From NCBI RefSeq assembly GCF_001677475.2, contig NZ_CP015229.1: a stretch of 64,000 nucleotides of DNA. One strand, 5' to 3'. A program made the position numbers and the translations under genes. Under the pieces are notes generated by a model. The model was not told where the DNA came from. It saw only the letters and a program-made list of their open reading frames with translations, and ran no database searches. The DNA is from Escherichia coli (lineage in GTDB: Bacteria > Pseudomonadota > Gammaproteobacteria > Enterobacterales > Enterobacteriaceae). Of this stretch, positions 22,680 through 54,710 are shown one piece after another (within the stretch, counting starts at the first letter, position 1; the number at the start of each line of letters is the position of its first letter).

Positions 22680-24914
<2,235 letters not shown>

Positions 24915-25007
24915 TCTGACCTTCTTCAGCGACTGCCTTTCATGCAGTCGCTGAAGTTTCTTTACCGGCGTATAGTGTCCACAGGAAAACTACACACTGG
25001 ATCTCAC

Positions 25008-25446
25008 ATGTCTGCCGCAGGAAAGAGCAACCCACTGGCAATCAGTGGCCTGGTTGTGCTCACACTTATCTGGAGTTATAGCTGGATTTTCATGAAGCAA
25101 GTCACCAGCTACATCGGTGCCTTCGACTTCACCGCCTTACGCTGCATTTTCGGCGCTCTCGTTTTATTCATCGTCCTTTTATTACGTGGTCGCGGAATGC
25201 GCCCGACGCCGTTTAAATACACCTTAGCCATCGCCCTGTTACAAACCTGTGGGATGGTTGGCCTGGCGCAGTGGGCGCTGGTCAGCGGCGGAGCGGGGAA
25301 GGTGGCGATCCTGAGCTATACCATGCCGTTCTGGGTGGTGATTTTCGCCGCGTTGTTTCTCGGTGAACGCCTGCGACGTGGGCAATATTTCGCGATAATG
25401 ATTGCCGCTTTCGGCTTATTTTTGGTGTTGCAGCCGTGGCAACTCG
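25008..25446 (+). pseudogene. yijE: yijE 5' fragment (codons 1-146 of a 301-aa EamA/DMT transporter), truncated by IS insertion
   Basis: [22 protein letters not shown]...LVLQPWQL then frame enters the IS and stops after 1 codon; 146 + 155 native codons = 301, the K-12 YijE length. Confidence 0.85.
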
Positions 25447-25539
25447 TATGAGACGACAATAACTCAGTCCGCCTGGCGCCGATTATTCTGGCCGGTTTTG
25501 TAACCTGAGTGTCATTTACATGATCCAACAGGAAATGGC

Positions 25540-27039
25540 GTGACGCTCAATACTTCTCAGGTCAGTTACTATATGACTCAGCGTAAGAAAGGTATAACTC
25601 AGCATATCTCGGCCATGAAGGCTGGTATCTCAGTCCGTTCTGGTCGTCGGATCGAAAAAGGAGAGTGGGCAAAAAACAGTGTTCGGCACTGGCGCACACG
25701 CAAAGATCCTCTGGAAGCTGTGTGGGACAGCATGCTTGTTCCTCTGTTGAAAGAGAGGCCGGCTCTGACACCAACAACTCTACTGGAGATGCTACAGGAT
25801 AAATATCCCGGCCAGTACCCCAACAGCCTTCGAAGAACAATGCAACGGCGGGTTCGCGAATGGAAACTACAGTATGGTACAGAGCAGGAGGTCATGTTCC
25901 GCCAGCAACATCAGCCCGGCCTGCGAGGCCTGTCGGACTTTACTGAACTGAAAGGTGTAGTTGTCACCATCGCCGGTAAGTTGTTGGCGCATAAGTTGTA
26001 TCACTTCCGTCTGGAATGGAGCCACTGGAGCTGGATGCGGGTTGTTCTGGGTGGTGAGAGCTTCTCTGCTCTGGCTGAAGGCCTGCAGGAAGCCCTCGGA
26101 CAACTGGGCGGAGTGCCGGTAGAACATAAAACGGACAGCCTGAGGGCAGCATGGAAACAACAGGGCGAAGATGGACGCCGCGAGCTGACTGAGCGTTATG
26201 CTACTCTCTGTCAGCACTACGGAATGCAGGGCGTACACAATAATGCCGGTCGGGGCCACGAAAATGGCTCGGTTGAAAGTGCCCACGGACATCTGAAAAG
26301 GCGTATCTGTCAGGCGCTGATACTGCGGGGCAGTAACGACTTCAGCACCATAGAAGAATATCAGGCCTTCATCACTCAGCAGGTTATGCGGCACAACCGT
26401 AACAATCAGGATCTGGTCAAGGAAGAACGTCTTCATCTGAAACCGCTGCCGCTTCGTCGCAGTGCTGACTATGATGAGCTGACTGTGAGGGTTAGTCGCA
26501 GCAGTACCATCAATGTGAAGCACGTCGTCTACAGCGTACCTTCCCGGCTTGTAGGTCAACTGTTACGGGTCAGGTTATGGGACGATCGTCTGAGCTGTTA
26601 CGTTGGCAGCAGCGAGGTCATGAGCTGCCCTCGCGTCAGACCAGAAAAAGGGAAGACGCGGGCCCGTCGTATCGACTTCCGACATGTGATCGACAGTCTG
26701 GCAAAAAAGCCCGGTGCGTTCTGCCATGCAACGCTGAGAAATGACATCCTGCCGGACGATGAATGGCGGAGGCTGTGGCGTCGCTTATGTAATCATCTGG
26801 AGCCCGATATGGCAGGAAGGCTGATGGTACATGCCCTGAAACTGGCTGCAGGATACGACGATATCTCAGTCGTGGCAAAAGGTATGGAGCAGATGCTGAA
26901 TACCCCGGGAAACGTGGATCTGCACCGGCTGATGCGCTTCCTGGGTATAAAAGAAAAGGCGTTGCCGGTAGTCAATGTGATACAGCATAACCTGAGCAGT
27001 TATGAGCAACTACTGCGTGGCAAGGGAGGTTCGCAGTGA
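25540..27039 (+). CDS. istA: IS21-family transposase IstA (up to 499 aa; start uncertain, GTG at 25540 or ATG at 25573)
   Basis: N-terminal HTH-like region, central DDE-type integrase-like region, C-terminal extension; followed by overlapping istB. Confidence 0.8.
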   Translation: MTLNTSQVSYYMTQRKKGITQHISAMKAGISVRSGRRIEKGEWAKNSVRHWRTRKDPLEAVWDSMLVPLLKERPALTPTTLLEMLQDKYPGQYPNSLRRTMQRRVREWKLQYGTEQEVMFRQQHQPGLRGLSDFTELKGVVVTIAGKLLAHKLYHFRLEWSHWSWMRVVLGGESFSALAEGLQEALGQLGGVPVEHKTDSLRAAWKQQGEDGRRELTERYATLCQHYGMQGVHNNAGRGHENGSVESAHGHLKRRICQALILRGSNDFSTIEEYQAFITQQVMRHNRNNQDLVKEERLHLKPLPLRRSADYDELTVRVSRSSTINVKHVVYSVPSRLVGQLLRVRLWDDRLSCYVGSSEVMSCPRVRPEKGKTRARRIDFRHVIDSLAKKPGAFCHATLRNDILPDDEWRRLWRRLCNHLEPDMAGRLMVHALKLAAGYDDISVVAKGMEQMLNTPGNVDLHRLMRFLGIKEKALPVVNVIQHNLSSYEQLLRGKGGSQ

Positions 27040-27791
27040 GCAATATCCATCACCTTGAACATAGCCTGCGTAAACTACGCCTGACACGAGTTGGAGCTGA
27101 ATGGCACGCTCTGGAAAAACGAGCGCTGGCAGAAGGCTGGACACCATCGCGCTATCTTCTGACGCTATGCAATGAAGAACTCCTGTGGCGCGAGAGTGAA
27201 AAACTGCGTCGTTATAAAAAGGAGGCCCGGTTGCCAGTTGCCAAAACGCTGAGCGAATACGACTTCAGTCAGGTGCCGGAACTGAATGGAGCTCAGTTCC
27301 GGCAACTCTGTGAAACGACAGACTGGGTTGATGCAGGAGAAAACGTTCTGCTGTTCGGAGCCAGCGGGTTGGGGAAAAGCCATCTGGCGGCAGCGATCGT
27401 GGATGGCGTAGTAGGTCAGGGCTACCGGGCCCGGTTCTACAGCGCAGGAGAGCTGTTGCAGGAACTACGTAAAGCCAGAGCTCAGTTGAAACTGAATGAG
27501 CTGCTACTGAAACTGGATCGCTACCGGGTGATAGTGGTGGATGATCTTGGCTATGTAAAACGCGATAGTGCCGAAACGGGTGTGCTGTTCGAGTTAATAG
27601 CGCATCGCTATGAACGTGGGAGCCTGGTGATAACCAGTAACCATCCGTTCAGCATGTGGGGCAGCATCTTCGTGGATGAGACTATGGCGGTGGCTGCGGC
27701 AGACAGGCTGATCCATCACGGATATATGTTCGAACTGAAAGGGGAAAGCTACAGGAAAAAGACAGCGAAGGCAGTAACAAGCGCGACTTGA
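27036..27791 (+). CDS. istB: IS21-family helper ATPase IstB (251 aa, GTG start overlapping istA stop)
   Basis: Walker A GASGLGKSH and Walker B VIVVDDLGY (AAA+/DnaC-like); GGAGG RBS at 27025-27029; GTG at 27036 overlaps TGA of istA. Confidence 0.85.
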   Translation: MSNIHHLEHSLRKLRLTRVGAEWHALEKRALAEGWTPSRYLLTLCNEELLWRESEKLRRYKKEARLPVAKTLSEYDFSQVPELNGAQFRQLCETTDWVDAGENVLLFGASGLGKSHLAAAIVDGVVGQGYRARFYSAGELLQELRKARAQLKLNELLLKLDRYRVIVVDDLGYVKRDSAETGVLFELIAHRYERGSLVITSNHPFSMWGSIFVDETMAVAAADRLIHHGYMFELKGESYRKKTAKAVTSAT

Positions 27792-27856
27792 TGTCGCCCT
27801 GAAGGGTGCGGCCAGTATAGTTGGCGCGAGTCGGCAAAACTAGTTGACGTCTAATA

Positions 27857-28329
27857 AACTCGATTTTTCTTCGATGAAAAGTGCCATGCTGGCAATCCTC
27901 TCCGGTGTTAGTTGGGGGGCGAGCGCGATTGTTGCTAAACGTCTGTATGCCCGTCATCCGCGCGTGGATTTATTGTCGTTAACATCCTGGCAGATGCTCT
28001 ATGCGGCGCTGGTGATGAGTGTGGTCGCTTTACTGGTGCCGCAACGTGAAATTGACTGGCAGCCCACCGTGTTCTGGGCGCTGGCCTACAGTGCGATTCT
28101 GGCGACGGCGCTGGCGTGGAGCTTATGGCTGTTTGTGCTGAAAAACTTGCCTGCCAGTATTGCCAGCTTAAGCACACTGGCCGTTCCCGTTTGCGGCGTA
28201 CTCTTTTCCTGGTGGCTGCTCGGTGAGAATCCGGGGGCCGTTGAAGGTAGCGGTATTGTGCTGATTGTGCTGGCACTGGCGCTGGTGAGCCGTAAGAAAA
28301 AAGAAGCCGTCAGTGTAAAAAGGATCTGA
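27857..28329 (+). pseudogene. yijE: yijE 3' fragment (codons 147-301), separated from the 5' fragment by the IS
   Basis: Frame [20 protein letters not shown]...[10 protein letters not shown] continues the EamA-domain transporter; first two codons derive from the target-site duplication. Confidence 0.85.
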
Positions 28330-28355
28330 ATTTTTTCTTCATGTGGGGCGATCTC

Positions 28356-28973
28356 TTATTTAACAAAATAACGATAATGCCCCACCATCCGCCAGCTAAA
28401 CAGCACATCTTCTTCCTGCGCGCCTGCGCCAATGTTATGTATCACCAGCGGCGTACCGTCGCGGGCGAAGCCATCTGACACCACCCCAATATGTGCCAGC
28501 CCGTTATCTAATCGCCAGGAGACAATATCGCCCGCTTGATAGTCACTGGGGTTCTTGCTGGTGGGGCGTGTTTTATCGTGGCGGGTAAACCAGGTTTCCA
28601 GATTAGGCACCCGACGGTGATCGATGTTGCTGTCCGGGCGCTTTAACTTCCACTTTTGCGGATAATCGGCAAAATTCTTCGCCATATCTTCGTGAACCAG
28701 TTTCTGCAAATCGACCTTCTGGCTGCGCAATGCACGGATCACCACATCGGAACATACACCGCGTTCTTGCGGGACATCACCGCCAGGATAGGTAAGCTGC
28801 ATATACGCCGGATCGTAAAATAGCGTGCTGCCGATTTGCTGTCTGGCACCGTCTGCGATGGCAAGGTTGGTATTGGCCTGGATTTGTACCACGGTTGGTG
28901 GAACGGCGGGAGATTTTAAGGAGTTGCTGGTAAATGCCGTTAGCAGGCTGAGCAGCGCCAGTGAAGCTTTCAT
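28356..28973 (-). CDS. yijF: DUF1287 secreted protein YijF (205 aa)
   Basis: ORF 205 aa with signal peptide MKASLALLSLLTAFTS; K-12 synteny. Confidence 0.85.
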   Translation of the reverse strand: MKASLALLSLLTAFTSNSLKSPAVPPTVVQIQANTNLAIADGARQQIGSTLFYDPAYMQLTYPGGDVPQERGVCSDVVIRALRSQKVDLQKLVHEDMAKNFADYPQKWKLKRPDSNIDHRRVPNLETWFTRHDKTRPTSKNPSDYQAGDIVSWRLDNGLAHIGVVSDGFARDGTPLVIHNIGAGAQEEDVLFSWRMVGHYRYFVK

Positions 28974-29098
28974 CTGGTTCGTCCGTGAAAATAAGAGTCA
29001 CAGATTCGACCTTCTGGGCTAACGATTGTTCTGTAGAGAAAATGTCCAGAAGCGGATAAAAAACTCCTGAACAACGTGGGAGTTTCAGATTACTGGCA

Positions 29099-29245
29099 CA
29101 GAGTGCCGGATGCGGCGTGAACGCCTTATCTGGCCTAAAAAGAAAGCAAATTCAATATATTGCAGAGATTGCGTAGGCCTGATAAGCGTAGCGCATCAGG
29201 CAATTTTGCGTTCAAACTCCCGGACAAGCCGGGAGTTTGGAGTAG
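29099..29245. repeat. BIME-like cluster of REP palindromes between yijF and gldA
   Basis: tgccggatgcggcgtgaacgccttatctggcc and gtaggcctgataagcgtagcgcatcaggc (REP consensus), plus hairpin aaactcccggacaagccgggagttt. Confidence 0.7.
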
Positions 29246-29246
29246 G

Positions 29247-30350
29247 TTATTCGTACTCTTGCAGGAAACGCTGACCGTACTGGTCGGCTACCAGCAGTGC
29301 GGCGTAAACCTGATCTGGCGTCGCGCCGCCAGGCATGTTGTGAATGGTTTCACCTTCTGCACATGCCGCTTCTGCCACAATTCGCATTTTCGCCGGGACA
29401 TCTTCTTTAATATCCAGTTGAGCGAGAGTTATTGGCAAACCTACCGCATGGCTAAGTGCAGCTACGGTTTCGATTTCCTCAACCGGCGCGTTTTCCAGTA
29501 CCAGCTGCGTCAGCGTACCAAATGCCACTTTTTCACCGTGGTAATAGTGATGCGCGTCCGGGATAGCGGTCAGGCCGTTATGCACCGCGTGAGCCGCCGC
29601 CAGCCCGCCGCTTTCAAAACCAACGCCGCTCAAATAGGTGTTCGCTTCAATCACGCGCTCCAGCGCCGGAGTCACTACATGCTGTTCGGCGGCAAGCATC
29701 GCTTTTTCGCCTTCTTCCAGTAGGGTGTTGTAGCACAGTTCAGCCAGTGCCAGCGCCGCTTGGGTGCACTTGCCGCCCGCCATGGTGGTCGCGCCGCTAC
29801 GAGAGCAGGCACGCGCTTCAAACCAGGTTGCCAGCGCATCGCCGATACCCGCCGCTAACAGACGTGCAGGTGCGCCAGCGACGATTTTGGTGTCGACAAT
29901 GACCATATTCGGGTTATTTGGCAGCATCAGATAGCGGTCAAATTCACCATCATCGGTGTAGATAACAGACAATGCGCTGCACGGTGCGTCGGTAGAGGCG
30001 ATAGTCGGTGCGATCGCTACCGGAACACCCATGAAATGTGCCAGTGCTTTGGCAGTATCGAGAGTTTTTCCGCCACCGATACCGAGAATTGCGCCACACT
30101 GCGCAGTCTCCGCGATGCCACGCAGACGGTCGATCTCATTTTGCGAACATTCACCGCCAAACGGCGCAATTTCTACTACCAGTCCAGCATCTTTAAAGCT
30201 TTTCTCGACAGTGGATTGAGCAAAACCTAAAACAAATTTGTCACCCACCACTAACCAGCGTTCTGCCAGCGGCTTCAGGTATTCGCCCAGACGATTAATC
30301 ACATCAGCGCCCTGGATGTATTTACCCGGTGATTGAATAATGCGGTCCAT
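29247..30350 (-). CDS. gldA: Glycerol dehydrogenase (367 aa)
   Basis: [24 protein letters not shown]...; iron-type alcohol dehydrogenase family; canonical start at codon 14 of ORF-track frame. Confidence 0.93.
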
Positions 30351-30360
30351 AATTGCTCCT

Positions 30361-31023
30361 TTAGAGATGAGTAGTGCCAAATGCGGCATTCCAGTCGTGT
30401 TCGAACTTCTCTATAGCTGACTCTACCGCAGGGGTGTTGAGCATTTGTTGCGCTACATCTAAGGGCAGGGTGATGGATTCACATCCTGCCAGTAAACAGT
30501 CCAGCGCCTGACGCGGCGTTTTAAAGCTGGCCGCCAGCACCATGCTTTCTGGTGCGTGCATTTCCAACAGCGCTTGCAGCTCATGAACCGTACGAATGCC
30601 GTCTCCGCCCTGGGCGTCTACGCGGTTAACATACGGAGCAACGTATTTTGCCCCTGCCAGTGCGGCTAATAACCCTTGTGCGGCGCTATATACAGCGGTG
30701 CCAAGTGTAGTAATACCCTCTTTTTTCAGCATCTTAATGGCGGCCAGACCTTCGGAAGTCACCGGGATTTTCACCACAATACCCGGAATGGCGTCGCGCA
30801 GGCGCTTCGCTTCTTCCACCATCCCCTGCGCGTCGCGGCTCATGGTCTGAGCAAACAGAATGCCCTCATCACCAATCGCTTTTTGCAGACGCGGCAGCAC
30901 TTCCCAGATGGACTCCTTGCTGGCAGCGATAATGCTCGGGTTAGTTGTCACCCCGGCAATGGGGAATATGCGTGCCAGACGTTCGACTTCTGCGACGTTA
31001 GCGGTGTCCAGATACAGTTCCAT
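30361..31023 (-). CDS. fsaB: Fructose-6-phosphate aldolase 2 (220 aa)
   Basis: [32 protein letters not shown]; transaldolase-like fold. Confidence 0.93.
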
Positions 31024-31034
31024 GATGTTTCCTT

Positions 31035-33536
31035 TTACAGTTCCAGTTCATGTTGCAGCAGGCTGGCGATAGCGTCGGCAGAGGCGGCGTTAACCAGCGC
31101 GTTACGGAATTCTTCGTGCATAATGCGACGAGCGAGGCGCGAGAAAATGCGCATATGCTGATCGCCCGCAGCGTGTTTGTTCAGGGTTAACATGATGATG
31201 AATTGCGCTTCATCATCGCCCCAGCGCACCGGCGCTTGCAGACGCGCCACGCTGATGGTGGATTGCTCAATATGTTCTGATTTGCTGTGTGGAATGGCAA
31301 AACTAAAGCCCAGACCGGTAGAGAAAACGGCCTCGCGCGCCCACAAGTCGGCTTCCAGTTTACGCGGATAGCGGCAGCGCCCTGCCAGCAGCAGGTTATC
31401 GGTCATGCCTTTGAGCACTTCTTCTTTGCTGCGCCAGTCGCTTTCCAGCGTGATGCACTCGGCGGTGACCAGTGGTGCGTCCTGTTGGGTCATGCGGAAT
31501 TGCGCCAGCAGATGTTCCACTTCCAGCGAAGTACGGCAGGCCATTGCCTGGTTGAGCAACTGGCGGCACTCACGGCTATCAAGTTGCGCCATTCGCGCTT
31601 TCGCCGCCGGAATTGACGGTGCGCTCATGCTGAGTTCATCCAGCCCTAAACCGACCAGTAACGGCAGCACGGAACCTTTCGCTCCCAGTTCACCGCACAG
31701 ACCAATCCATTTCCCCTGGCGATGCACCGCCTGCACGGCGTAATCGAGCGCCCGCAAGAAGGCCGGATTCAGGCTGTTGTAGTGACGAGTAACCTTAGCG
31801 TTATCGCGATCCACTGCCAGCAGATATTGCGTCAGGTCATTACTACCAATACTAAAGAAATCAATCTCTTCGCAGCATTGATCGATGATGAACATCACCG
31901 ACGGCACTTCCAGCATAATGCCGAGCTGGATCTTCTCATCAAACGGAATGTGTTCGTTACGTAGTTGCTGTTTGGCTTCTGCCAGTTTTTCTTTCACCCA
32001 TAAGATCTCTTCCATTGAGGAGATCATCGGGATCATGATTTTCAGGCTGCCGTGAGCGGAGGCGCGCAGGATCGAGCGTAGTTGTGTGGTAAATAACGAC
32101 GCGTATTCTTCATAAATACGCACCGCGCGATAACCGAGGAACGGGTTAGCTTCTGCCGGAATGTTCAGATAATCAACGGGTTTGTCACCGCCAATGTCCA
32201 TAGTGCGCACAATAATGCTGCGTCCGTTGGCGGACTCCAGCGCCTGACAAAAAATGTTGTACAGCTCGCTTTCGCCCGGTGCGCTGGTGCGATCCATATA
32301 GAGCATTTCAGTGCGGAACAAACCAACGCCTTCCGCACCATTGCCGAATGCGGCCTGCGCTTCCACGGAGTGAGCGATGTTAGCGGCAATTTCAATGCGG
32401 ATACCGTCAGCGGTACGGGCTTGTTGGGTCAGCCAGACACGCTGTTGCTCACGCAGGGCGTCCTGTACGCGGGCTTCCTGCTGATAATAACGAGCTACGG
32501 CTTCCCCTGGCTCAACCACAATCGCCCCAGCGTTGCCGTCGATATAAATCGTTTGATGCTGCCACGGAGTGAGGGCATCAATATCCACACCAACCAGCGT
32601 CGGAATGTTGAACGAACGGGCAAGGATCACCGTATGTGAGGTGGTGCCGCCGCTTTTGAGCAACAATCCTTTGAGGTGATTTTTATCCAATTCGAGGAAC
32701 TGGCTGGGGGTCAGTTCATCAGCCATACAAATGGCGGGCTGCGTCAGTTTGCCCGGTGCCGGGAAGCGTTGCTCACCGTAGATTTGCTGGAGTAACTGGA
32801 AGCAGACGTCGCGTACGTCCAGGGCGCGTTCTTGCAGGTAGCTGCTGCTGGAACGGGCGAACTCTTCGCAGAAGTGGTGTGCACTGGCGACAATCGCTTC
32901 GGCACAGCTTAATCCCTCGCTGACGCCTGCCAGTAAGTGCTGACGTAAAGAAGTATCGCCAGCCAGGGATCGGTGAGCTTCCAGTATCGCGCTGGTAGCA
33001 CCGTCGCTATCCAGCAGACGAAATTCAATGTTTTTCATCACCAGTGTCAGGCCGTTTTCCAGCGCGGATTGCTCGGCGTCAACGTCTTTGGCTGCGGGAA
33101 GATTACCCAGCGCATTGAGATCTAAAGAAGAGATCGGCGTCAGAATGCCGCCTGCGCTACCGCTGCACACGGTGCGGGCGCGGATAATTTGCGGATTCAG
33201 ATTGGTCAGTGAAACCGGCAGTGGTTCCAGTTCGTCAGATTTTACTTCCGCCAGCGGTGCGTCGCAGTGGGGGAATTCATCGCGCAGCCATTGGCTTAAA
33301 CGCTGGTGCGCTTCCTGTTCGTCGGCCCCGGAAATCAGTAACTGGCAGTTATCGCCCACCAGCGTATCGGTGCCAATCAGCGCAAGGGCGCTTTTGGCGT
33401 TGCCCTTGCGGTCAGTGCGCAGGTTATGCCACTCAATTTGTGATGAAAAAGTATTACACAGCGTTTCAACGTGGCTTGCCGGACGCGCATGTACGCCGTT
33501 AGGTAGCTCACAAATAAATTCCACAATCAGGGCCAT
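31035..33536 (-). CDS. ptsA: Multidomain PTS protein (HPr-like / Enzyme I-like / EIIA-Fru-like), 833 aa
   Basis: ORF 833 aa; N-terminal HPr-like GVHARPAS, central PEP-utilising enzyme region, C-terminal EIIA-like region. Confidence 0.9.
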
Positions 33537-33844
33537 TGCCTCTCTCCCGGTACGGTTTTCTGTTTACAGGATAAGAGCGCATGGCAACGACCTGCCATGT
33601 GACAAATCTGCCAAAAGCTGGACAAATGTAATGTAACCGCCAATTTGCGACGCGTCTCACAAGACGCCGTTTTGCGGCATGCTTCCGGATTATCGCAAGT
33701 TATGAGGCGGATCGCATTTTTGTACTGATATTACAAAAGTCCAGTAAATGGCCTTTTTATCCACTGTTTGCTCCGCCTGCGATTGCCTATTGTTTCCTCC
33801 ATCAAAAATATGGACATGGGCTTTCGCAAGCCCGGGAGCAGCTT

Positions 33845-34924
33845 ATGAATGAGTTGGTGCAGATCCTGAAAAATACCCGTCAGCATTTAATGACGGGCGT
33901 TTCACACATGATTCCCTTCGTGGTATCGGGCGGTATTTTGCTGGCGGTTTCCGTCATGTTGTATGGCAAAGGCGCAGTGCCGGATGCCGTAGCCGATCCG
34001 AATCTGAAAAAACTGTTTGATATCGGCGTTGCGGGTTTGACGCTGATGGTGCCTTTCCTCGCCGCTTACATTGGTTACTCCATTGCAGAGCGTTCTGCGC
34101 TGGCTCCGTGCGCTATCGGTGCCTGGGTCGGCAACAGCTTTGGTGCGGGTTTCTTTGGTGCGCTGATCGCCGGGATTATCGGCGGCATCGTGGTGCATTA
34201 TCTGAAGAAAATTCCGGTGCATAAAGTTCTGCGCTCGGTGATGCCCATCTTCATCATTCCTATCGTCGGCACACTGATTACCGCAGGCATCATGATGTGG
34301 GGCTTGGGCGAGCCTGTAGGGGCGTTGACCAACAGCCTGACTCAGTGGCTACAGGGGATGCAGCAGGGCAGCATTGTTATGCTGGCGGTGATCATGGGGC
34401 TGATGCTGGCGTTCGATATGGGCGGTCCGGTTAACAAAGTGGCCTATGCCTTCATGCTGATTTGCGTTGCTCAGGGTGTTTATACCGTGGTGGCTATTGC
34501 CGCTGTTGGGATTTGTGTTCCACCGCTGGGCATGGGGCTGGCGACGCTGATTGGTCGTAGAAATTTCTCCGCAGAAGAGCGCGAAACCGGTAAAGCAGCG
34601 CTAGTGATGGGGTGCGTTGGGGTTACTGAAGGGGCGATTCCTTTCGCCGCTGCCGATCCGCTGCGTGTTATTCCTTCCATCATGGTCGGTTCAGTTTGTG
34701 GTGCAGTAACTGCGGCGCTGGTCGGTGCGCAGTGCTATGCAGGCTGGGGTGGTCTGATTGTGCTGCCGGTGGTTGAAGGTAAGTTGGGTTATATCGCGGC
34801 AGTGGCTGTCGGGGCGGTTGTGACGGCAGTCTGCGTGAACGTGCTGAAAAGTCTGGCGCGTAAAAATGGGTCTTCGACTGATGAAAAAGAAGACGACCTG
34901 GATTTGGATTTTGAAATTAATTAA
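33845..34924 (+). CDS. frwC: PTS fructose-like EIIC permease (359 aa)
   Basis: ORF 359 aa polytopic membrane protein; K-12 synteny. Confidence 0.9.
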   Translation: MNELVQILKNTRQHLMTGVSHMIPFVVSGGILLAVSVMLYGKGAVPDAVADPNLKKLFDIGVAGLTLMVPFLAAYIGYSIAERSALAPCAIGAWVGNSFGAGFFGALIAGIIGGIVVHYLKKIPVHKVLRSVMPIFIIPIVGTLITAGIMMWGLGEPVGALTNSLTQWLQGMQQGSIVMLAVIMGLMLAFDMGGPVNKVAYAFMLICVAQGVYTVVAIAAVGICVPPLGMGLATLIGRRNFSAEERETGKAALVMGCVGVTEGAIPFAAADPLRVIPSIMVGSVCGAVTAALVGAQCYAGWGGLIVLPVVEGKLGYIAAVAVGAVVTAVCVNVLKSLARKNGSSTDEKEDDLDLDFEIN

Positions 34925-34938
34925 TTGAGGAACGAGCC

Positions 34939-35259
34939 ATGACGAAAATTATTGCAGTAACCGCGTGTCCATCTGGTGTTGCCCATACCTATATGGCGGC
35001 AGAGGCGCTGGAAAGTGCCGCGAAAGCGAAAGGCTGGGAAGTGAAAGTAGAAACCCAGGGCTCGATTGGTCTGGAAAATGAACTGACTGCGGAAGACGTG
35101 GCGAGCGCCGATATGGTGATTCTGACCAAAGATATCGGCATCAAGTTTGAAGAGCGTTTTGCTGGCAAGACCATCGTGCGCGTCAACATCAGCGACGCGG
35201 TAAAACGCGCTGATGCCATTATGAGCAAAATTGAAGCTCACCTGGCACAAACCGCTTAA
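34939..35259 (+). CDS. frwB: PTS fructose-like EIIB component (106 aa)
   Basis: MTKIIAVTACPSGVAHTYMAAEAL; active-site Cys motif of EIIB-Fru type. Confidence 0.9.
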   Translation: MTKIIAVTACPSGVAHTYMAAEALESAAKAKGWEVKVETQGSIGLENELTAEDVASADMVILTKDIGIKFEERFAGKTIVRVNISDAVKRADAIMSKIEAHLAQTA

Positions 35260-35267
35260 GTTCTTAT

Positions 35268-35292
35268 CCCGCCCGTAAGGGCGGGTTCGCTT
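35268..35292 (+). terminator. Possible hairpin/attenuator between frwB and pflD
   Basis: cccgcccgtaagggcggg hairpin followed by a T-containing tract; weak U-run. Confidence 0.35.
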
Positions 35293-35309
35293 TCCCACAG
35301 GAGTTCCTC

Positions 35310-37607
35310 ATGACGAATCGTATCTCTCGCCTCAAAACTGCACTGTTTGCCAATACCCGTGAAATCTCGCTGGAGCGGGCGCTGCTTTATACCGCCAGCC
35401 ATAAGCAAACCGAAGGCGAACCGGTGATTATTCGTCGGGCAAAAGCCACGGCGTATATCCTTGAACATGTTGAAATTTCGATTCGTGATGAAGAACTGAT
35501 TGCTGGTAACCGCACCGTAAAACCTCGCGCCGGGATTATGTCGCCGGAAATGGATCCTTACTGGTTGCTGAAAGAGCTGGAGCAATTCCCGACGCGACCG
35601 CAGGATCGCTTTGCTATCAGTGAAGAAGATAAACGTATCTACCGCGAAGAGTTGTTCCCGTACTGGGAAAAACGTTCGATGAAAGATTTCATCAACGGGC
35701 AGATGACGGATGAAGTAAAAGCCGCAACCAGCACGCAGATTTTCAGCATCAACCAGACGGATAAAGGCCAGGGGCACATTATTATTGATTACCCACGCCT
35801 GTTGAATCACGGGCTGGGGGAGCTGGTGGCACAGATGCAGCAACATTGTCAGCAACAGCCGGAGAATCACTTTTATCAGGCCGCGCTGTTACTGCTGGAA
35901 GCTTCACAAAAACACATTTTGCGTTACGCCGAACTGGCAGAAACGATGGCGGCAAACTGCACCGATGCCCAGCGTCGCGACGAATTGCTGACTATTGCGG
36001 AGATCTCCCGCCATAACGCGCAACATAAGCCGCAGACGTTCTGGCAGGCGTGCCAGTTATTCTGGTACATGAACATCATTCTGCAATACGAATCCAACGC
36101 CAGTTCGCTGTCGTTAGGGCGCTTCGACCAGTATATGTTGCCGTTCTATCAGACATCATTAACCCAGGGCGAAGACCCGGCGTTCCTGAAAGAACTGCTC
36201 GAATCTTTATGGGTGAAGTGCAACGACATCGTGCTGTTACGCTCCACCAGCAGCGCGCGCTATTTCGCAGGTTTCCCGACCGGCTATACCGCGCTGCTCG
36301 GCGGTTTAACGGAAAACGGACGTAGTGCGGTGAACGTGCTTTCGTTCCTCTGCCTCGACGCCTATCAAAGCGTGCAATTACCGCAACCGAACCTGGGCGT
36401 GCGCACTAACGCCTTGATCGACACGCCGTTCCTGATGAAAACCGCAGAAACCATTCGCCTCGGCACCGGTATTCCGCAAATCTTTAACGATGAAGTGGTG
36501 GTGCCAGCGTTCCTCAACCGTGGCGTTTCGCTGGAAGATGCGCGCGACTATTCAGTAGTGGGCTGTGTGGAATTATCTATTCCCGGCAGAACCTACGGCT
36601 TGCATGACATCGCGATGTTTAACCTGCTGAAAGTGATGGAAATCTGCCTGCATGAAAATGAAGGCAATGCTGCGCTGACTTATGAAGGTTTACTGGAGCA
36701 GATCCGCGCCAAGATCAGCCACTACATCACCCTGATGGTTGAGGGCAGCAATATTTGCGATATCGGTCACCGTGACTGGGCACCTGTACCGCTGCTCTCA
36801 TCGTTTATCAGCGATTGTCTGGAAAAAGGCCGCGATATTACCGATGGCGGTGCGCGTTATAACTTCTCCGGCGTACAGGGGATCGGTATCGCCAACCTGA
36901 GCGATTCTCTCCATGCGTTGAAAGGTATGGTTTTTGAGCAACAGCGTTTAAGTTTTGACGAATTGCTGTCGGTATTAAAAGCCAACTTTGCAACGCCAGA
37001 AGGCGAAAAAGTCCGCGCTCGCTTAATTAACCGCTTTGAGAAATACGGTAACGATATCGACGAGGTGGATAACATTAGCGCCGAACTGTTGCGCCACTAC
37101 TGCAAAGAAGTGGAAAAATACCAGAACCCGCGCGGCGGCTACTTCACGCCGGGATCGTATACCGTTTCTGCTCACGTCCCGTTGGGATCGGTGGTTGGCG
37201 CGACGCCAGACGGTCGTTTTGCCGGGGAACAACTGGCAGACGGCGGCTTGTCACCTATGCTGGGTCAGGACGCACAAGGGCCAACGGCGGTACTGAAGTC
37301 AGTCAGTAAGCTCGATAATACGCTGCTGTCTAACGGTACGTTGCTGAACGTGAAATTCACTCCGGCGACCCTGGAAGGTGAAGCGGGATTACGCAAACTG
37401 GCCGACTTCTTACGGGCGTTTACCCAGCTTAAGTTGCAGCATATTCAGTTTAACGTGGTGAACGCCGACACGTTGCGGGAAGCGCAACAGCGCCCACAAG
37501 ATTATGCCGGGCTGGTGGTGCGCGTTGCCGGATACAGCGCCTTCTTTGTCGAATTGTCGAAGGAGATCCAGGATGACATCATCCGCCGGACAGCGCATCA
37601 GCTGTAA
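35310..37607 (+). CDS. pflD: Glycyl-radical enzyme, pyruvate formate-lyase paralogue (765 aa)
   Basis: ORF 765 aa; C-terminal glycyl radical motif VRVAGYSAFF. Confidence 0.93.
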   Translation: MTNRISRLKTALFANTREISLERALLYTASHKQTEGEPVIIRRAKATAYILEHVEISIRDEELIAGNRTVKPRAGIMSPEMDPYWLLKELEQFPTRPQDRFAISEEDKRIYREELFPYWEKRSMKDFINGQMTDEVKAATSTQIFSINQTDKGQGHIIIDYPRLLNHGLGELVAQMQQHCQQQPENHFYQAALLLLEASQKHILRYAELAETMAANCTDAQRRDELLTIAEISRHNAQHKPQTFWQACQLFWYMNIILQYESNASSLSLGRFDQYMLPFYQTSLTQGEDPAFLKELLESLWVKCNDIVLLRSTSSARYFAGFPTGYTALLGGLTENGRSAVNVLSFLCLDAYQSVQLPQPNLGVRTNALIDTPFLMKTAETIRLGTGIPQIFNDEVVVPAFLNRGVSLEDARDYSVVGCVELSIPGRTYGLHDIAMFNLLKVMEICLHENEGNAALTYEGLLEQIRAKISHYITLMVEGSNICDIGHRDWAPVPLLSSFISDCLEKGRDITDGGARYNFSGVQGIGIANLSDSLHALKGMVFEQQRLSFDELLSVLKANFATPEGEKVRARLINRFEKYGNDIDEVDNISAELLRHYCKEVEKYQNPRGGYFTPGSYTVSAHVPLGSVVGATPDGRFAGEQLADGGLSPMLGQDAQGPTAVLKSVSKLDNTLLSNGTLLNVKFTPATLEGEAGLRKLADFLRAFTQLKLQHIQFNVVNADTLREAQQRPQDYAGLVVRVAGYSAFFVELSKEIQDDIIRRTAHQL

Positions 37608-51855: not shown

Positions 51856-52184
51856 GGTAGGGCTTACCTGTTCTTATACATAAAAGCAACAGAATGGTAA
51901 CATTTTATCGCGGGTAAGCCAATTGATCCCCGTCATTAATCTGGCTATAGCGTGAGCGGCCTTTGCTTTGTCTGCCCCCTTCTTAACCCATTTATTTACT
52001 ATTAATCGCTTTTTCTTATGGCTGATAGTTTTATCTTGCCGAAGCGTGCTTTTTTGTTATTGTCTTTATGAAATATTCTTATAAAACAAACATATAAATA
52101 TTTTATATTGATGAGTTATTTGTATTTATACCATCAATAAAATCCGTTAATTAGCCTGTTTATAAGTGAATAAAGGAATAGCCG

Positions 52185-53351
52185 ATGATCGAACACTATA
52201 TTCGAGGGTTTGAGGAAGAACTGCGTGAGATCCGCCATCAGATCCACGAAAACCCGGAGCTGGGATTACAAGAATTTAAAACCAGTGCTTTGGTGGCGGA
52301 AAAGCTGCGTCAGTGGGGCTATGAAGTAGAGCAAGGACTGGCGACGACGGGGATAGTGGCCACGTTAAAAGTGGGCGACGGAGAGAAAAGTATTGGCCTG
52401 CGGGCGGATATGGATGCGCTGCCAATTTATGAAAATAGTGGCAAGCCCTGGGCCAGTAAACATCCTGGTTTAATGCACGCCTGCGGGCATGACGGGCATA
52501 CCACCATACTGCTGGGGGCCGCGCGTTATTTTGCCGAAACCCGCCGTTTTAACGGCACGTTACGTCTTATCTTCCAGCCTGCGGAAGAGATGATTAACGG
52601 CGGTGAGATCATGGTTAAAGAGGGGCTTTTTGATCATTTCCCCTGCGATGTCATTTTCGGCATGCATAACATGCCCGGTCTGCCGGTGGGTAAGTTTTAT
52701 TTCCAGCCAGGGGAACTGATGGCGTCAATGGATCAGTTCCATATTACAGTTCGTGGTTGTGGCGGACACGGTGCGATCCCGCACAAAGCCATCGATCCGG
52801 TGCTGGTTGCCGCACATATCACCACCGCATTACAAAGCATTGTGTCGCGCAATGTCGATCCGCTGGAAGCGGCGGTAATTACCGTCGGCAGCATTGTTGC
52901 GGGTGAGGCGGCTAACGTCATTCCTGACAGTGCTGAGATGAAAATCAGCGTCCGCTCTCTTAGCCGCGATACCCGACAACTTCTTCTGACCCGTATTCCT
53001 GCTCTGGCACAAACCCAGGCTGCCAGCTTTGGTGCTACGGCTGAGGTTACGCATGTTAACGGTACACCGGTATTAGTGAATGACGAGGAGATGGCGCGCT
53101 TCGCCTGGCAGGTGGCGTGTAAAACGTTTGGTGAAGATCGGGCCGAGTTTGGCATCAAGCCCCTGATGGGCAGTGAGGATTTCTCTTTCATGCTGGAAGC
53201 CCAGCCGAAAGGCGCTTTTTTGCTGTTCGGTAATGGCGATGTCGGGGAAGGTTCCTGCATGGTGCATAACCCGGGTTACGACTTCAACGATGCAAGTCTG
53301 GTCCCGGCATGCAGCTACTGGGGCGCACTGGTAGAAGCTTGGCTGCAATAA
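52185..53351 (+). CDS. M20D-family amidohydrolase (hippurate hydrolase / N-acyl-amino-acid amidohydrolase-like), 388 aa; accessory gene not in K-12
   Basis: Metal-binding motifs typical of M20D enzymes (HACGHDGH, ...GEE...); GGAA RBS-like upstream; no paralogue recalled at this locus in K-12. Confidence 0.8.
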   Translation: MIEHYIRGFEEELREIRHQIHENPELGLQEFKTSALVAEKLRQWGYEVEQGLATTGIVATLKVGDGEKSIGLRADMDALPIYENSGKPWASKHPGLMHACGHDGHTTILLGAARYFAETRRFNGTLRLIFQPAEEMINGGEIMVKEGLFDHFPCDVIFGMHNMPGLPVGKFYFQPGELMASMDQFHITVRGCGGHGAIPHKAIDPVLVAAHITTALQSIVSRNVDPLEAAVITVGSIVAGEAANVIPDSAEMKISVRSLSRDTRQLLLTRIPALAQTQAASFGATAEVTHVNGTPVLVNDEEMARFAWQVACKTFGEDRAEFGIKPLMGSEDFSFMLEAQPKGAFLLFGNGDVGEGSCMVHNPGYDFNDASLVPACSYWGALVEAWLQ

Positions 53352-53393
53352 ATAAAACAACACACAACAACACTTTTTGGCAAGGAACATGGA

Positions 53394-54710
53394 ATGACGG
53401 CGATCGTAAATGAAACCGTGAGTGTGAAGAAAAAGCCCAGCGGTAAGCGGGTGATTTTTGCTTCGGCGTTTGGCAATGCGCTCGAATTTTTTGATTTTGG
53501 CGTTTACAACTTTTTTGTGGTCTATATCAGTACGCTTTTCTTCCCACCCAGCGCTGATCACAATGTCGCGCTGTTACTGGCATTTGCAACATTTGGCGTG
53601 AGTTTTTTTATGCGCCCGCTTGGTGGAATTATCGTCGGGGCCTGGGCCGATCGCTTCGGACGCAAACCCGCGATGGTGTTCACCATTGCCCTGATGAGCC
53701 TCGGTACACTGATGATCGGCATCGCACCGACGTATGAAACGGCGGGCTATTGGGGAACCGCGACGCTGGTGCTGGCGCGTCTAATTCAGGGCGTTGCGGC
53801 AGGAGGCGAAGTCGGTGCCTCAATGTCTTTGTTGGTTGAATCAGCTCCGGCAAATCGTCGCGGCTTTTACAGCAGTTGGTCACTGGCGACTCAAGGCCTG
53901 GCAACAACCTTTGGTGGTGTTGTCGCTTTAGGTTTAAGCGCATGGCTGCCCTTTGCGACAGGTTCAGAAACCGTAATGGCTGAATGGGGCTGGCGTGTGC
54001 CATTTTTTATTGGCGTGTTATTAGCACCTATCGGTTGCTGGTTGCGTCTGAGCCTGGAAAATGACGTACCTGAGCTAGTGCGCAATAAAAAAGCTGCTAC
54101 CAGCGAAAGCGCGTTCTCTCTGCTCCTGCAACATAAGGCGACTATCGTTAACGGCGTTTTACTCGCTATTGGTAGCACGGTCGCAACCTATATCTCCCTC
54201 TTTTATTACGGCACCTGGGCGGCGAAGTATCTGGCGATGCCTCAACATTATTCTCATGCAGCGATGTTACTGGCGGGCGTTATTACGTTTGTGGGTGCGC
54301 TGCTTGTGGGGATGTTGTGCGATTCGGTCGGGCGTAAAAAGCTGATTTTAATCTCCCGTGTGATGGTGCTGATCTGTAGCTGGCCGTCATTCTGGCTGTT
54401 GGTGAATTACCCAAGCCCTGGCATGTTGCTGACGGTGGTTTTCGTGATGGTCAGCTTTACCACGCTTGGCGGTGTGCCGGTAATGTTGCTGATCTCTGAA
54501 CTGTTGCCGAAACGGATTCGGGCATTGGGTTTTGCGCTGGTTTATAGCATTGGTGTGGCAATCTTTGGCGGTTTTGCTCAATATTTCGCTACGCAATCCA
54601 TCGTGTTGCTGGATAGTTTGACAGCTCCGGCGTGGTATTTGGGTGGAGGCACGTTGCTGTCGATGCTGGCGTTGTTGTACGTAAAAGAACCGGCCAAAGA
54701 ATTGCAGTAA
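53394..54710 (+). CDS. MFS transporter, metabolite:H+ symporter (MHS) family-like (438 aa); accessory gene not in K-12
   Basis: ~12 predicted hydrophobic helices; MFS loop motif [10 protein letters not shown]; MHS-like signatures [26 protein letters not shown] (compare ProP/KgtP/ShiA). Confidence 0.8.

Follow-up and report, generated by a model that had tools for sequence, protein, structure and literature searches.

A single ISEc10 copy, an insertion sequence of the IS21 family, splits yijE in an Escherichia coli genome

What interrupts yijE in Escherichia coli contig NZ_CP015229.1, and does the interrupting DNA do more than break the gene? The question arises at positions 25447–27856 of the 64,000-nucleotide stretch analysed here (the window), where an insertion sequence (IS) with an istA/istB gene pair separates the two parts of this cystine exporter gene. 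We are nearly certain that a single, apparently functional copy of ISEc10 moved into yijE at the linker that joins its two EamA repeats, duplicated the hexamer AACTCG and inactivated the gene. Judged by its sequence, the element is the already catalogued IS21-family ISEc10, and the finding matters little beyond annotation. The insertion is laid out as follows.

25447..27856, plus strand: complete ISEc10 element, 2410 bp (full-length matches of 98.5–99.8% identity are annotated as ISEc10; ends set by seven other insertions)
25441..25446, unstranded: left copy of the target-site duplication AACTCG (single AACTCG at the K-12 empty site)
27857..27862, unstranded: right copy of the target-site duplication AACTCG (single AACTCG at the K-12 empty site)
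25008..25446, plus strand: yijE 5′ fragment, nt 1–439 of 906, whose frame stops at TGA 25449–25451 inside the IS
27863..28329, plus strand: yijE 3′ fragment, nt 440–906 (by comparison with K-12)

Megablast with 25447–27856 as query matched 898 genomes in the set of 5,426 complete E. coli genomes that underlies all E. coli genome counts below; in 525 of the 898 (560 records) a match spans at least 80% of the element. Among the matches listed, the span is 1–2410 and the annotation ISEc10 throughout, in diverse genomic contexts. The name is the label given by PGAP (the NCBI annotation pipeline) to matching copies of the same length. The nearest copies, in E. coli OkiPb01695 and RM9088, are 99.8% identical, and those of CFT073 are 98.5% identical across 2410/2410 bp, with 37 nucleotide differences that amount to four residues in IstA and one in IstB and leave both frames open. 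The CFT073 element (NC_004431.1, 1234406–1236815) agrees with the window copy in length, termini, 6-bp target duplication and istA/istB layout, and differs from it in its insertion site. There is only one ISEc10 copy in the 64-kb window. New ISEc10 insertions adjoining lpp arose in CFT073 during drug selection (PMC7482066), which marks ISEc10 as a mobile, active element.

The ends can be fixed to the base. In eight independent insertions, the window copy included, the left end begins TATGAGACG and the right end finishes CGTCTAATA (TATTAGACG as reverse complement); read inward, the two ends are TATGAGACGACAA (left) and TATTAGACGTCAA (right). The seven further insertions lie in the chromosomes of CFT073, OkiPb01695, EC7 and S103EC, on two E. 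coli plasmids and on one Klebsiella plasmid. Six of these seven are flanked by a target duplication (6 bp in L001, L003, L004, L009 and L018 of our numbering, 5 bp in L002), the repeated bases outside the ends being GTCTTC, TTTTC (the 5-bp case), GGCTCC, CACGCC, GGTGGC and ACGTCC. The EC7 copy (L005) has no flanking duplication and adjoins another IS. A Salmonella copy (L010), inspected by eye, has the same ends and the 6-bp duplication GCGGGT. At yijE itself, the K-12 empty site reads GTGGCAACTCGATTTC, with one AACTCG, and removing the IS plus one AACTCG in silico restores a 906-nt yijE of 301 residues, one residue off K-12 YijE. Shared ends, flanking duplications and the K-12 empty site, together with the megablast matches, make the boundaries 25447 and 27856 exact and the element 2410 bp long, just as a preliminary description of the locus, made from the sequence, had drawn them. 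That description had also remarked on termini of the form TAT(G/T)AGACG in place of TG; all eight insertions have them, and because the duplications directly abut TAT...ATA, the TA termini are real and the boundary is not mis-set.

Two of the elements examined deserve further mention here. An ISEc10 insertion has been described in the afa promoter region of the sequence type 131 strain S103EC (PMC8764528); this copy (L018, NZ_CP076693.1, 3004–5409) measures 2406 bp by its ends, carries the ACGTCC duplication and has a frameshifted istA, and the paper quotes a length of 2,530 bp. A relative on a Klebsiella plasmid (L011; CP044378.1, 1409–3817), whose IstA is 68% identical, is decayed, with frameshifts in both istA and istB and a 7-bp flanking repeat, ATCTGAG. 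The duplication lengths, 6 bp in the window and 7 bp in this relative, fall in the short range (4–8 bp) of the IS21 family.

Both genes of the element are on the plus strand, istA first and the shorter istB second.

25540..27039, plus strand: istA, DDE transposase of 499 residues, GTG start (NCBIfam NF033546; PGAP start identical)
25936–25938, 26134–26136 and 26260–26262, plus strand: codons of the IstA catalytic residues D133, D199 and E241, invariant in the IstA alignment
27036..27791, plus strand: istB, AAA+ helper ATPase of 251 residues, GTG start (PF01695, 9.3e-62; NF038214)
27357–27383 and 27528–27554, plus strand: IstB Walker A (GASGLGKSH, residue 108) and Walker B (VIVVDDLGY, residue 165)
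27024..27029, plus strand: GGGAGG, istB ribosome-binding site inside the istA 3′ end, 6 nt before the istB GTG

IstA scores 226 bits against the NCBIfam profile transpos_IS21 (NF033546; cut-off 160), matching profile positions 2–293 of 294, and IstB scores 267 bits against IS21_help_AAA (NF038214; cut-off 200). Further matches of IstB are Pfam IstB_IS21 (9.3e-62) and the solved structures of IS5376 IstB (8q3w, E = 3.7e-45; 5bq5, E = 6.3e-40). The six aligned IstA proteins, among them those of ISBj11, ISRm9, IS1326 and ISPst3, all keep D133 (LSDFT), D199 (KTDSL) and E241 (GHENG), down to about 20% identity; these residues form the DDE triad of IstA. With its same-strand gene order, an IS21-type DDE IstA and an AAA+ IstB bearing both Walker motifs, the element by all sequence signs belongs to the IS21 family. 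The preliminary description had read the locus in this way, down to the Walker motifs, a GGAGG ribosome-binding site within istA and an istB start overlapping the istA stop as GTGA; each of these is borne out, the istB GTG (27036–27038) overlapping the istA TGA (27037–27039) by 4 nt. The 4-nt overlap recurs in ISBj11, ISRm9 and an Acidithiobacillus element (IstA 37–42% identical) and in the Klebsiella ISEc10-like copy, and its retention in distant relatives fits a predicted translational coupling of istA and istB.

Several smaller features surround these genes. The context of the istA start codon is retained in the 68% relative. Relatives keep a second in-frame start (ATG, codon 12; region 25540–25575), the codon at which the match to the NCBIfam profile sets in; IS21 makes two forms of IstA through alternative starts. 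A stem-loop at 25506–25549 (a 10-bp outer stem plus inner stems) pairs the istA Shine–Dalgarno sequence and the GUG start. We do not regard it as established: the folding z-score of the region is −0.86, and among five relatives compared it is kept in four, with mostly invariant pairs and one compensatory pair. A perfect palindrome, GCGAC-TTGAT-GTCGC (27783–27797), spans the istB stop, just inward of R2 in the right terminal repeat; no plus-strand T-run follows, which makes it unlike an operon terminator. In an Rfam scan of 24900–28400 the sole match, to RNase MRP, was at chance level (E = 0.11; 15.8 bits against a threshold of 50).

We next consider how the two ends are built.

25447..25494, plus strand: left terminal inverted repeat, 48 bp, with L1 at 25453–25471 and L2 at 25476–25494 (34/48 against the right end)
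27809..27856, minus strand: right terminal inverted repeat, 48 bp, with R1 at 27832–27850 and R2 at 27809–27827 (34/48 against the left end)

These repeats, first described as imperfect, about 46 bp long and identical at about 31 positions, match without gaps at 32/46, or 34/48 over their full length, with two conserved blocks in the alignment; 20,000 random pairs of 48-mers from the window gave 12.1 ± 3.1 matches and a maximum of 26. An alignment of the termini for internal multiple repeats had also been proposed, and it bore fruit. We scored self-similarity inside each end at offsets of 10–39 bp, in ISEc10 and in the 68% Klebsiella relative (four ends). At an offset of 23 bp the matches are 12/19 (left) and 13/19 (right) in ISEc10, and 15/19 and 16/19 in the relative, a total of 56 over the four ends against 18.5 ± 3.7 in shuffles (maximum 33); none of the other offsets from 10 to 39 bp rose above 24. 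An end thus comprises the 6-nt tip TAT(G/T)AG and, inward of it, two direct repeats of about 19 bp at positions 7–25 and 30–48, which share a CG(A/T)CAA core and a GCCG tail. In the Klebsiella relative the pairs L1/L2 and R1/R2 are cleaner than in ISEc10, with GCGACAATTAC twice. Ends built from multiple direct repeats are characteristic of the IS21 family, where the same L1/L2 and R1/R2 organization has been described and integration needs two complete repeats per end (PMC10122671).

The ends also hold the two halves of a possible promoter.

27844..27849, plus strand: TTGACG, outward −35-like hexamer (7 bp to the right tip), which is the R1 core CGTCAA read on the other strand
25455..25460, plus strand: GACAAT, −10-like hexamer inside L1 (left positions 9–14), read from the sequence, with a putative promoter role

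Both positions are kept in the 68% relative. A split promoter is known from IS21, whose right end carries the −35 and whose left end the −10; juxtaposing the two ends makes a strong promoter (PMC10122671). In ISEc10, joining the right end to the left end through n bp would yield TTGACG-(15+n)-GACAAT; for n = 1–3, as in TTGACGTCTAATA-N(1-3)-TATGAGACGACAAT, the geometry predicts a spacing of 16–18 bp and 9/12 agreement with the consensus. By this geometry a junction of 1–3 bp would rebuild a promoter, as in IS21 tandems.

Combined with the literature on IS21 and IS5376 (PMC10122671 and work cited there), from which the individual steps are drawn, these features suggest how ISEc10 would move. A lone copy would express its transposase weakly, and IstA, once bound to the ends, would mask both promoter hexamers. 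IstA would bind L1/L2 and R1/R2 and synapse both ends as a tetramer; the GTGA overlap would couple the translation of istB to that of istA; and ATP-bound IstB would bind target DNA and be needed for strand transfer and for the correct duplication length. What the window copy itself displays is a 6-bp staggered-cut footprint, paired binding-site-like repeats at both ends and intact catalytic and ATPase motifs.

Some observations weigh against this account. A query joining the right end to the left end found no tandem or head-to-tail ISEc10 junction in the 5,426 complete E. coli genomes; with no natural junction among them, the junction-promoter step is an argument from geometry. Every ISEc10 copy examined, like the 68% relative, has 5′-TA...TA-3′ termini, against the family-usual TG...CA. 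IstA gave no match to Pfam rve even at E = 10, the only Pfam domain found being a Mu-transposase C-terminal barrel (residues 311–366), and a phmmer search of IstA against the sequences of solved structures was empty, also at E = 10. That set should include IS5376 IstA, whose structure was solved by cryo-electron microscopy (PMC10122671); what supports the transfer of mechanism from IS5376 IstA is the NCBIfam profile match and the aligned DDE residues. The unusual termini and the missing IstA matches might suggest a different element, either of another family or an undescribed species of IS21 family. We consider this extremely improbable: the window copy is 98.5% identical over all 2410 bp to the PGAP-named ISEc10 of CFT073, the family profile scores far exceed their curated cut-offs, and every ISEc10 copy examined has TA termini. 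In the ISfinder family description, 5′-TG...CA-3′ termini are typical of the IS21 family and not defining. We take the TA termini as a subgroup trait, which gives no ground for excluding the element from the family. A more plausible rival, though still an unlikely one, is that the copy is an inactive relic whose sole effect was to knock out yijE. It carries five substitutions relative to CFT073 (four in IstA, one in IstB), and other genomic copies are frameshifted (the EC7, S103EC and Salmonella copies and the Klebsiella relative). In the window copy, however, istA and istB are open and full length with intact DDE and Walker residues, both terminal repeats are identical to those of active-lineage copies, and the perfect target duplication, in a yijE only one residue from K-12, points to a recent insertion.

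The preliminary description had further suggested that an outward promoter might affect the downstream yijE fragment and yijF, and had called for a search for a −35 hexamer at the right end that could form hybrid promoters. The hexamer is there; a hybrid promoter is not predicted. Sixteen to eighteen base pairs 3′ of TTGACG the flank reads TTTCTT, TTCTTC or TCTTCG. None of these combines A at position 2 with T at position 6, and with no usable −10 after TTGACG no hybrid promoter is expected at the yijE site. A consensus promoter scan of 25300–28100 placed no site at the right end or in the flank; its single hit, an internal one on the minus strand, is no more than chance would give (1.9 expected in shuffles). 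yijF (28356–28973, minus strand) is convergent with yijE and has its promoter on the far side, so that transcription leaving the IS would necessarily run antisense to yijF. It is therefore very unlikely that a right-end promoter drives the 3′ half of yijE, antisense transcription across yijF, or both. TTGACG lies 7 bp from the tip, and an open frame from TTG 27844 continues in frame into the yijE 3′ half, but this TTG lacks a preceding Shine–Dalgarno sequence. Published insertions point the other way: ISEc10 reduced lpp expression 6–10 fold (PMC7482066) and lowered afa promoter activity (PMC8764528). In favour of read-out, PMC7482066 cites Haldorsen 2008 for AmpC overproduction after an ISEc10 insertion, a second-hand claim. 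We thus retain the reading of an apparently functional ISEc10 copy that inactivated yijE, with no promoter predicted to reach its neighbours.

Where does ISEc10 stand within its family? In the six-protein alignment its IstA is about 20% identical to those of IS1326 and ISPst3. Searching plasmids by tblastn, we found IstA to be 68% identical to that of the Klebsiella element, 44–47% to cyanobacterial elements, 42% to ISBj11 and 38% to ISRm9, and about 25%, across part of the protein, to IS1326, IS1600 and ISPst3. By these similarities IstA falls in a subgroup with the Klebsiella, cyanobacterial, ISBj11 and ISRm9 elements, and the earlier remark that this may be a less common family member seems fair, given also the lack of rve and solved-structure matches. 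The rhizobial elements ISBj11 and ISRm9 share with ISEc10 the IstA subgroup (37–42% identity), the 4-nt overlap and the CG(A/T)CAA core; the Klebsiella relative shares TATTAG termini, the 23-bp repeat spacing, the TTGACG and GACAAT positions and the same core. All three are IS species distinct from ISEc10. An ungapped inverted-repeat search defined no ends for ISBj11, ISRm9 or the Pseudanabaena and Acidithiobacillus relatives, so TA termini are asserted here for the enterobacterial branch only. TA termini and a diverged IstA, the only mildly unusual features, are traits of a known element and its subgroup, not of the yijE locus.

Comparison with the characterized systems sharpens the contrast. 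Like ISEc10, IS21 and IS5376 have a two-gene istA–istB operon encoding a DDE transposase and an AAA+ helper, terminal repeats each made of two direct repeats, and −35-like and −10-like hexamers placed in the right and the left end, respectively (PMC10122671). Both differ in having CA-3′ termini, against TA-3′ in ISEc10, and for IS5376 a 5-bp instead of a 6-bp duplication is reported (PMC10122671). Its IstA is too far from the 499-residue IstA of ISEc10 for detection by phmmer. To our knowledge, a CA-3′ terminus is near-universal. We raise as a speculation, and a quite improbable one, that ISEc10 and its Klebsiella relative may represent a branch of the family that cleaves and transfers TA-3′ ends, with an IstA beyond the reach of Pfam rve or of IS5376 IstA and a promoter predicted only at a 1–3-bp right–left junction.

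Returning to the host gene, ISEc10 interrupts yijE between nt 439 and nt 440 of 906. The break falls exactly in the linker that joins the two EamA repeats of YijE, of which the second comprises residues 152–289. The IS and yijE share orientation, and transcripts from the yijE promoter therefore enter the IS. The open reading frame that starts at TTG 27844 in the right terminal repeat runs to 28329, encoding 161 residues with one complete EamA repeat, in frame with the yijE 3′ half and with no evident promoter or ribosome-binding site. A 600-bp query across the left yijE junction was covered by no record among the 5,426 complete E. coli genomes, and an exact 32-mer scan for the junction in the species-representative genomes of the genome_contigs collection gave no match.

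The window is collinear with K-12 4,110,948–4,170,394 save for short intergenic differences and two large insertions, ISEc10 and a 2.7-kb islet. The islet (51975–54675) lies between sthA and fabR, is absent from K-12 and encodes a Peptidase_M20 amidohydrolase (52185–53351) and a major facilitator superfamily transporter (53394–54710); no IS or repeat was seen at its edges in the stretches read. A segment of about 100 bp in the yijF–gldA spacer (29104–29205) is 86% identical to K-12 4127951–4128052, between yiiX and metJ, and is presumably a repeat of the REP/BIME type (repetitive extragenic palindrome/bacterial interspersed mosaic element). Across the chromosomal flank 27863–36000 no genome among the 5,426 exceeds 97.5% identity, but the best IS copies in E. 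coli are 99.8% identical; the host thus looks like a divergent Escherichia lineage that has recently shared an IS with mainstream E. coli.

The insertion explains the split yijE of the source strain, as a strain-specific and probably recent event of an active IS. Its exact ends, 6-bp duplication and two-repeat architecture are now documented for ISEc10 from eight insertions, and the gap between the identity of the IS and that of its flank indicates that ISEc10 moves between Escherichia lineages faster than these lineages diverge. Should a TA-3′ branch exist, and be unstudied, it would offer a natural test of how strict IstA-type DDE enzymes are about the terminal dinucleotide.

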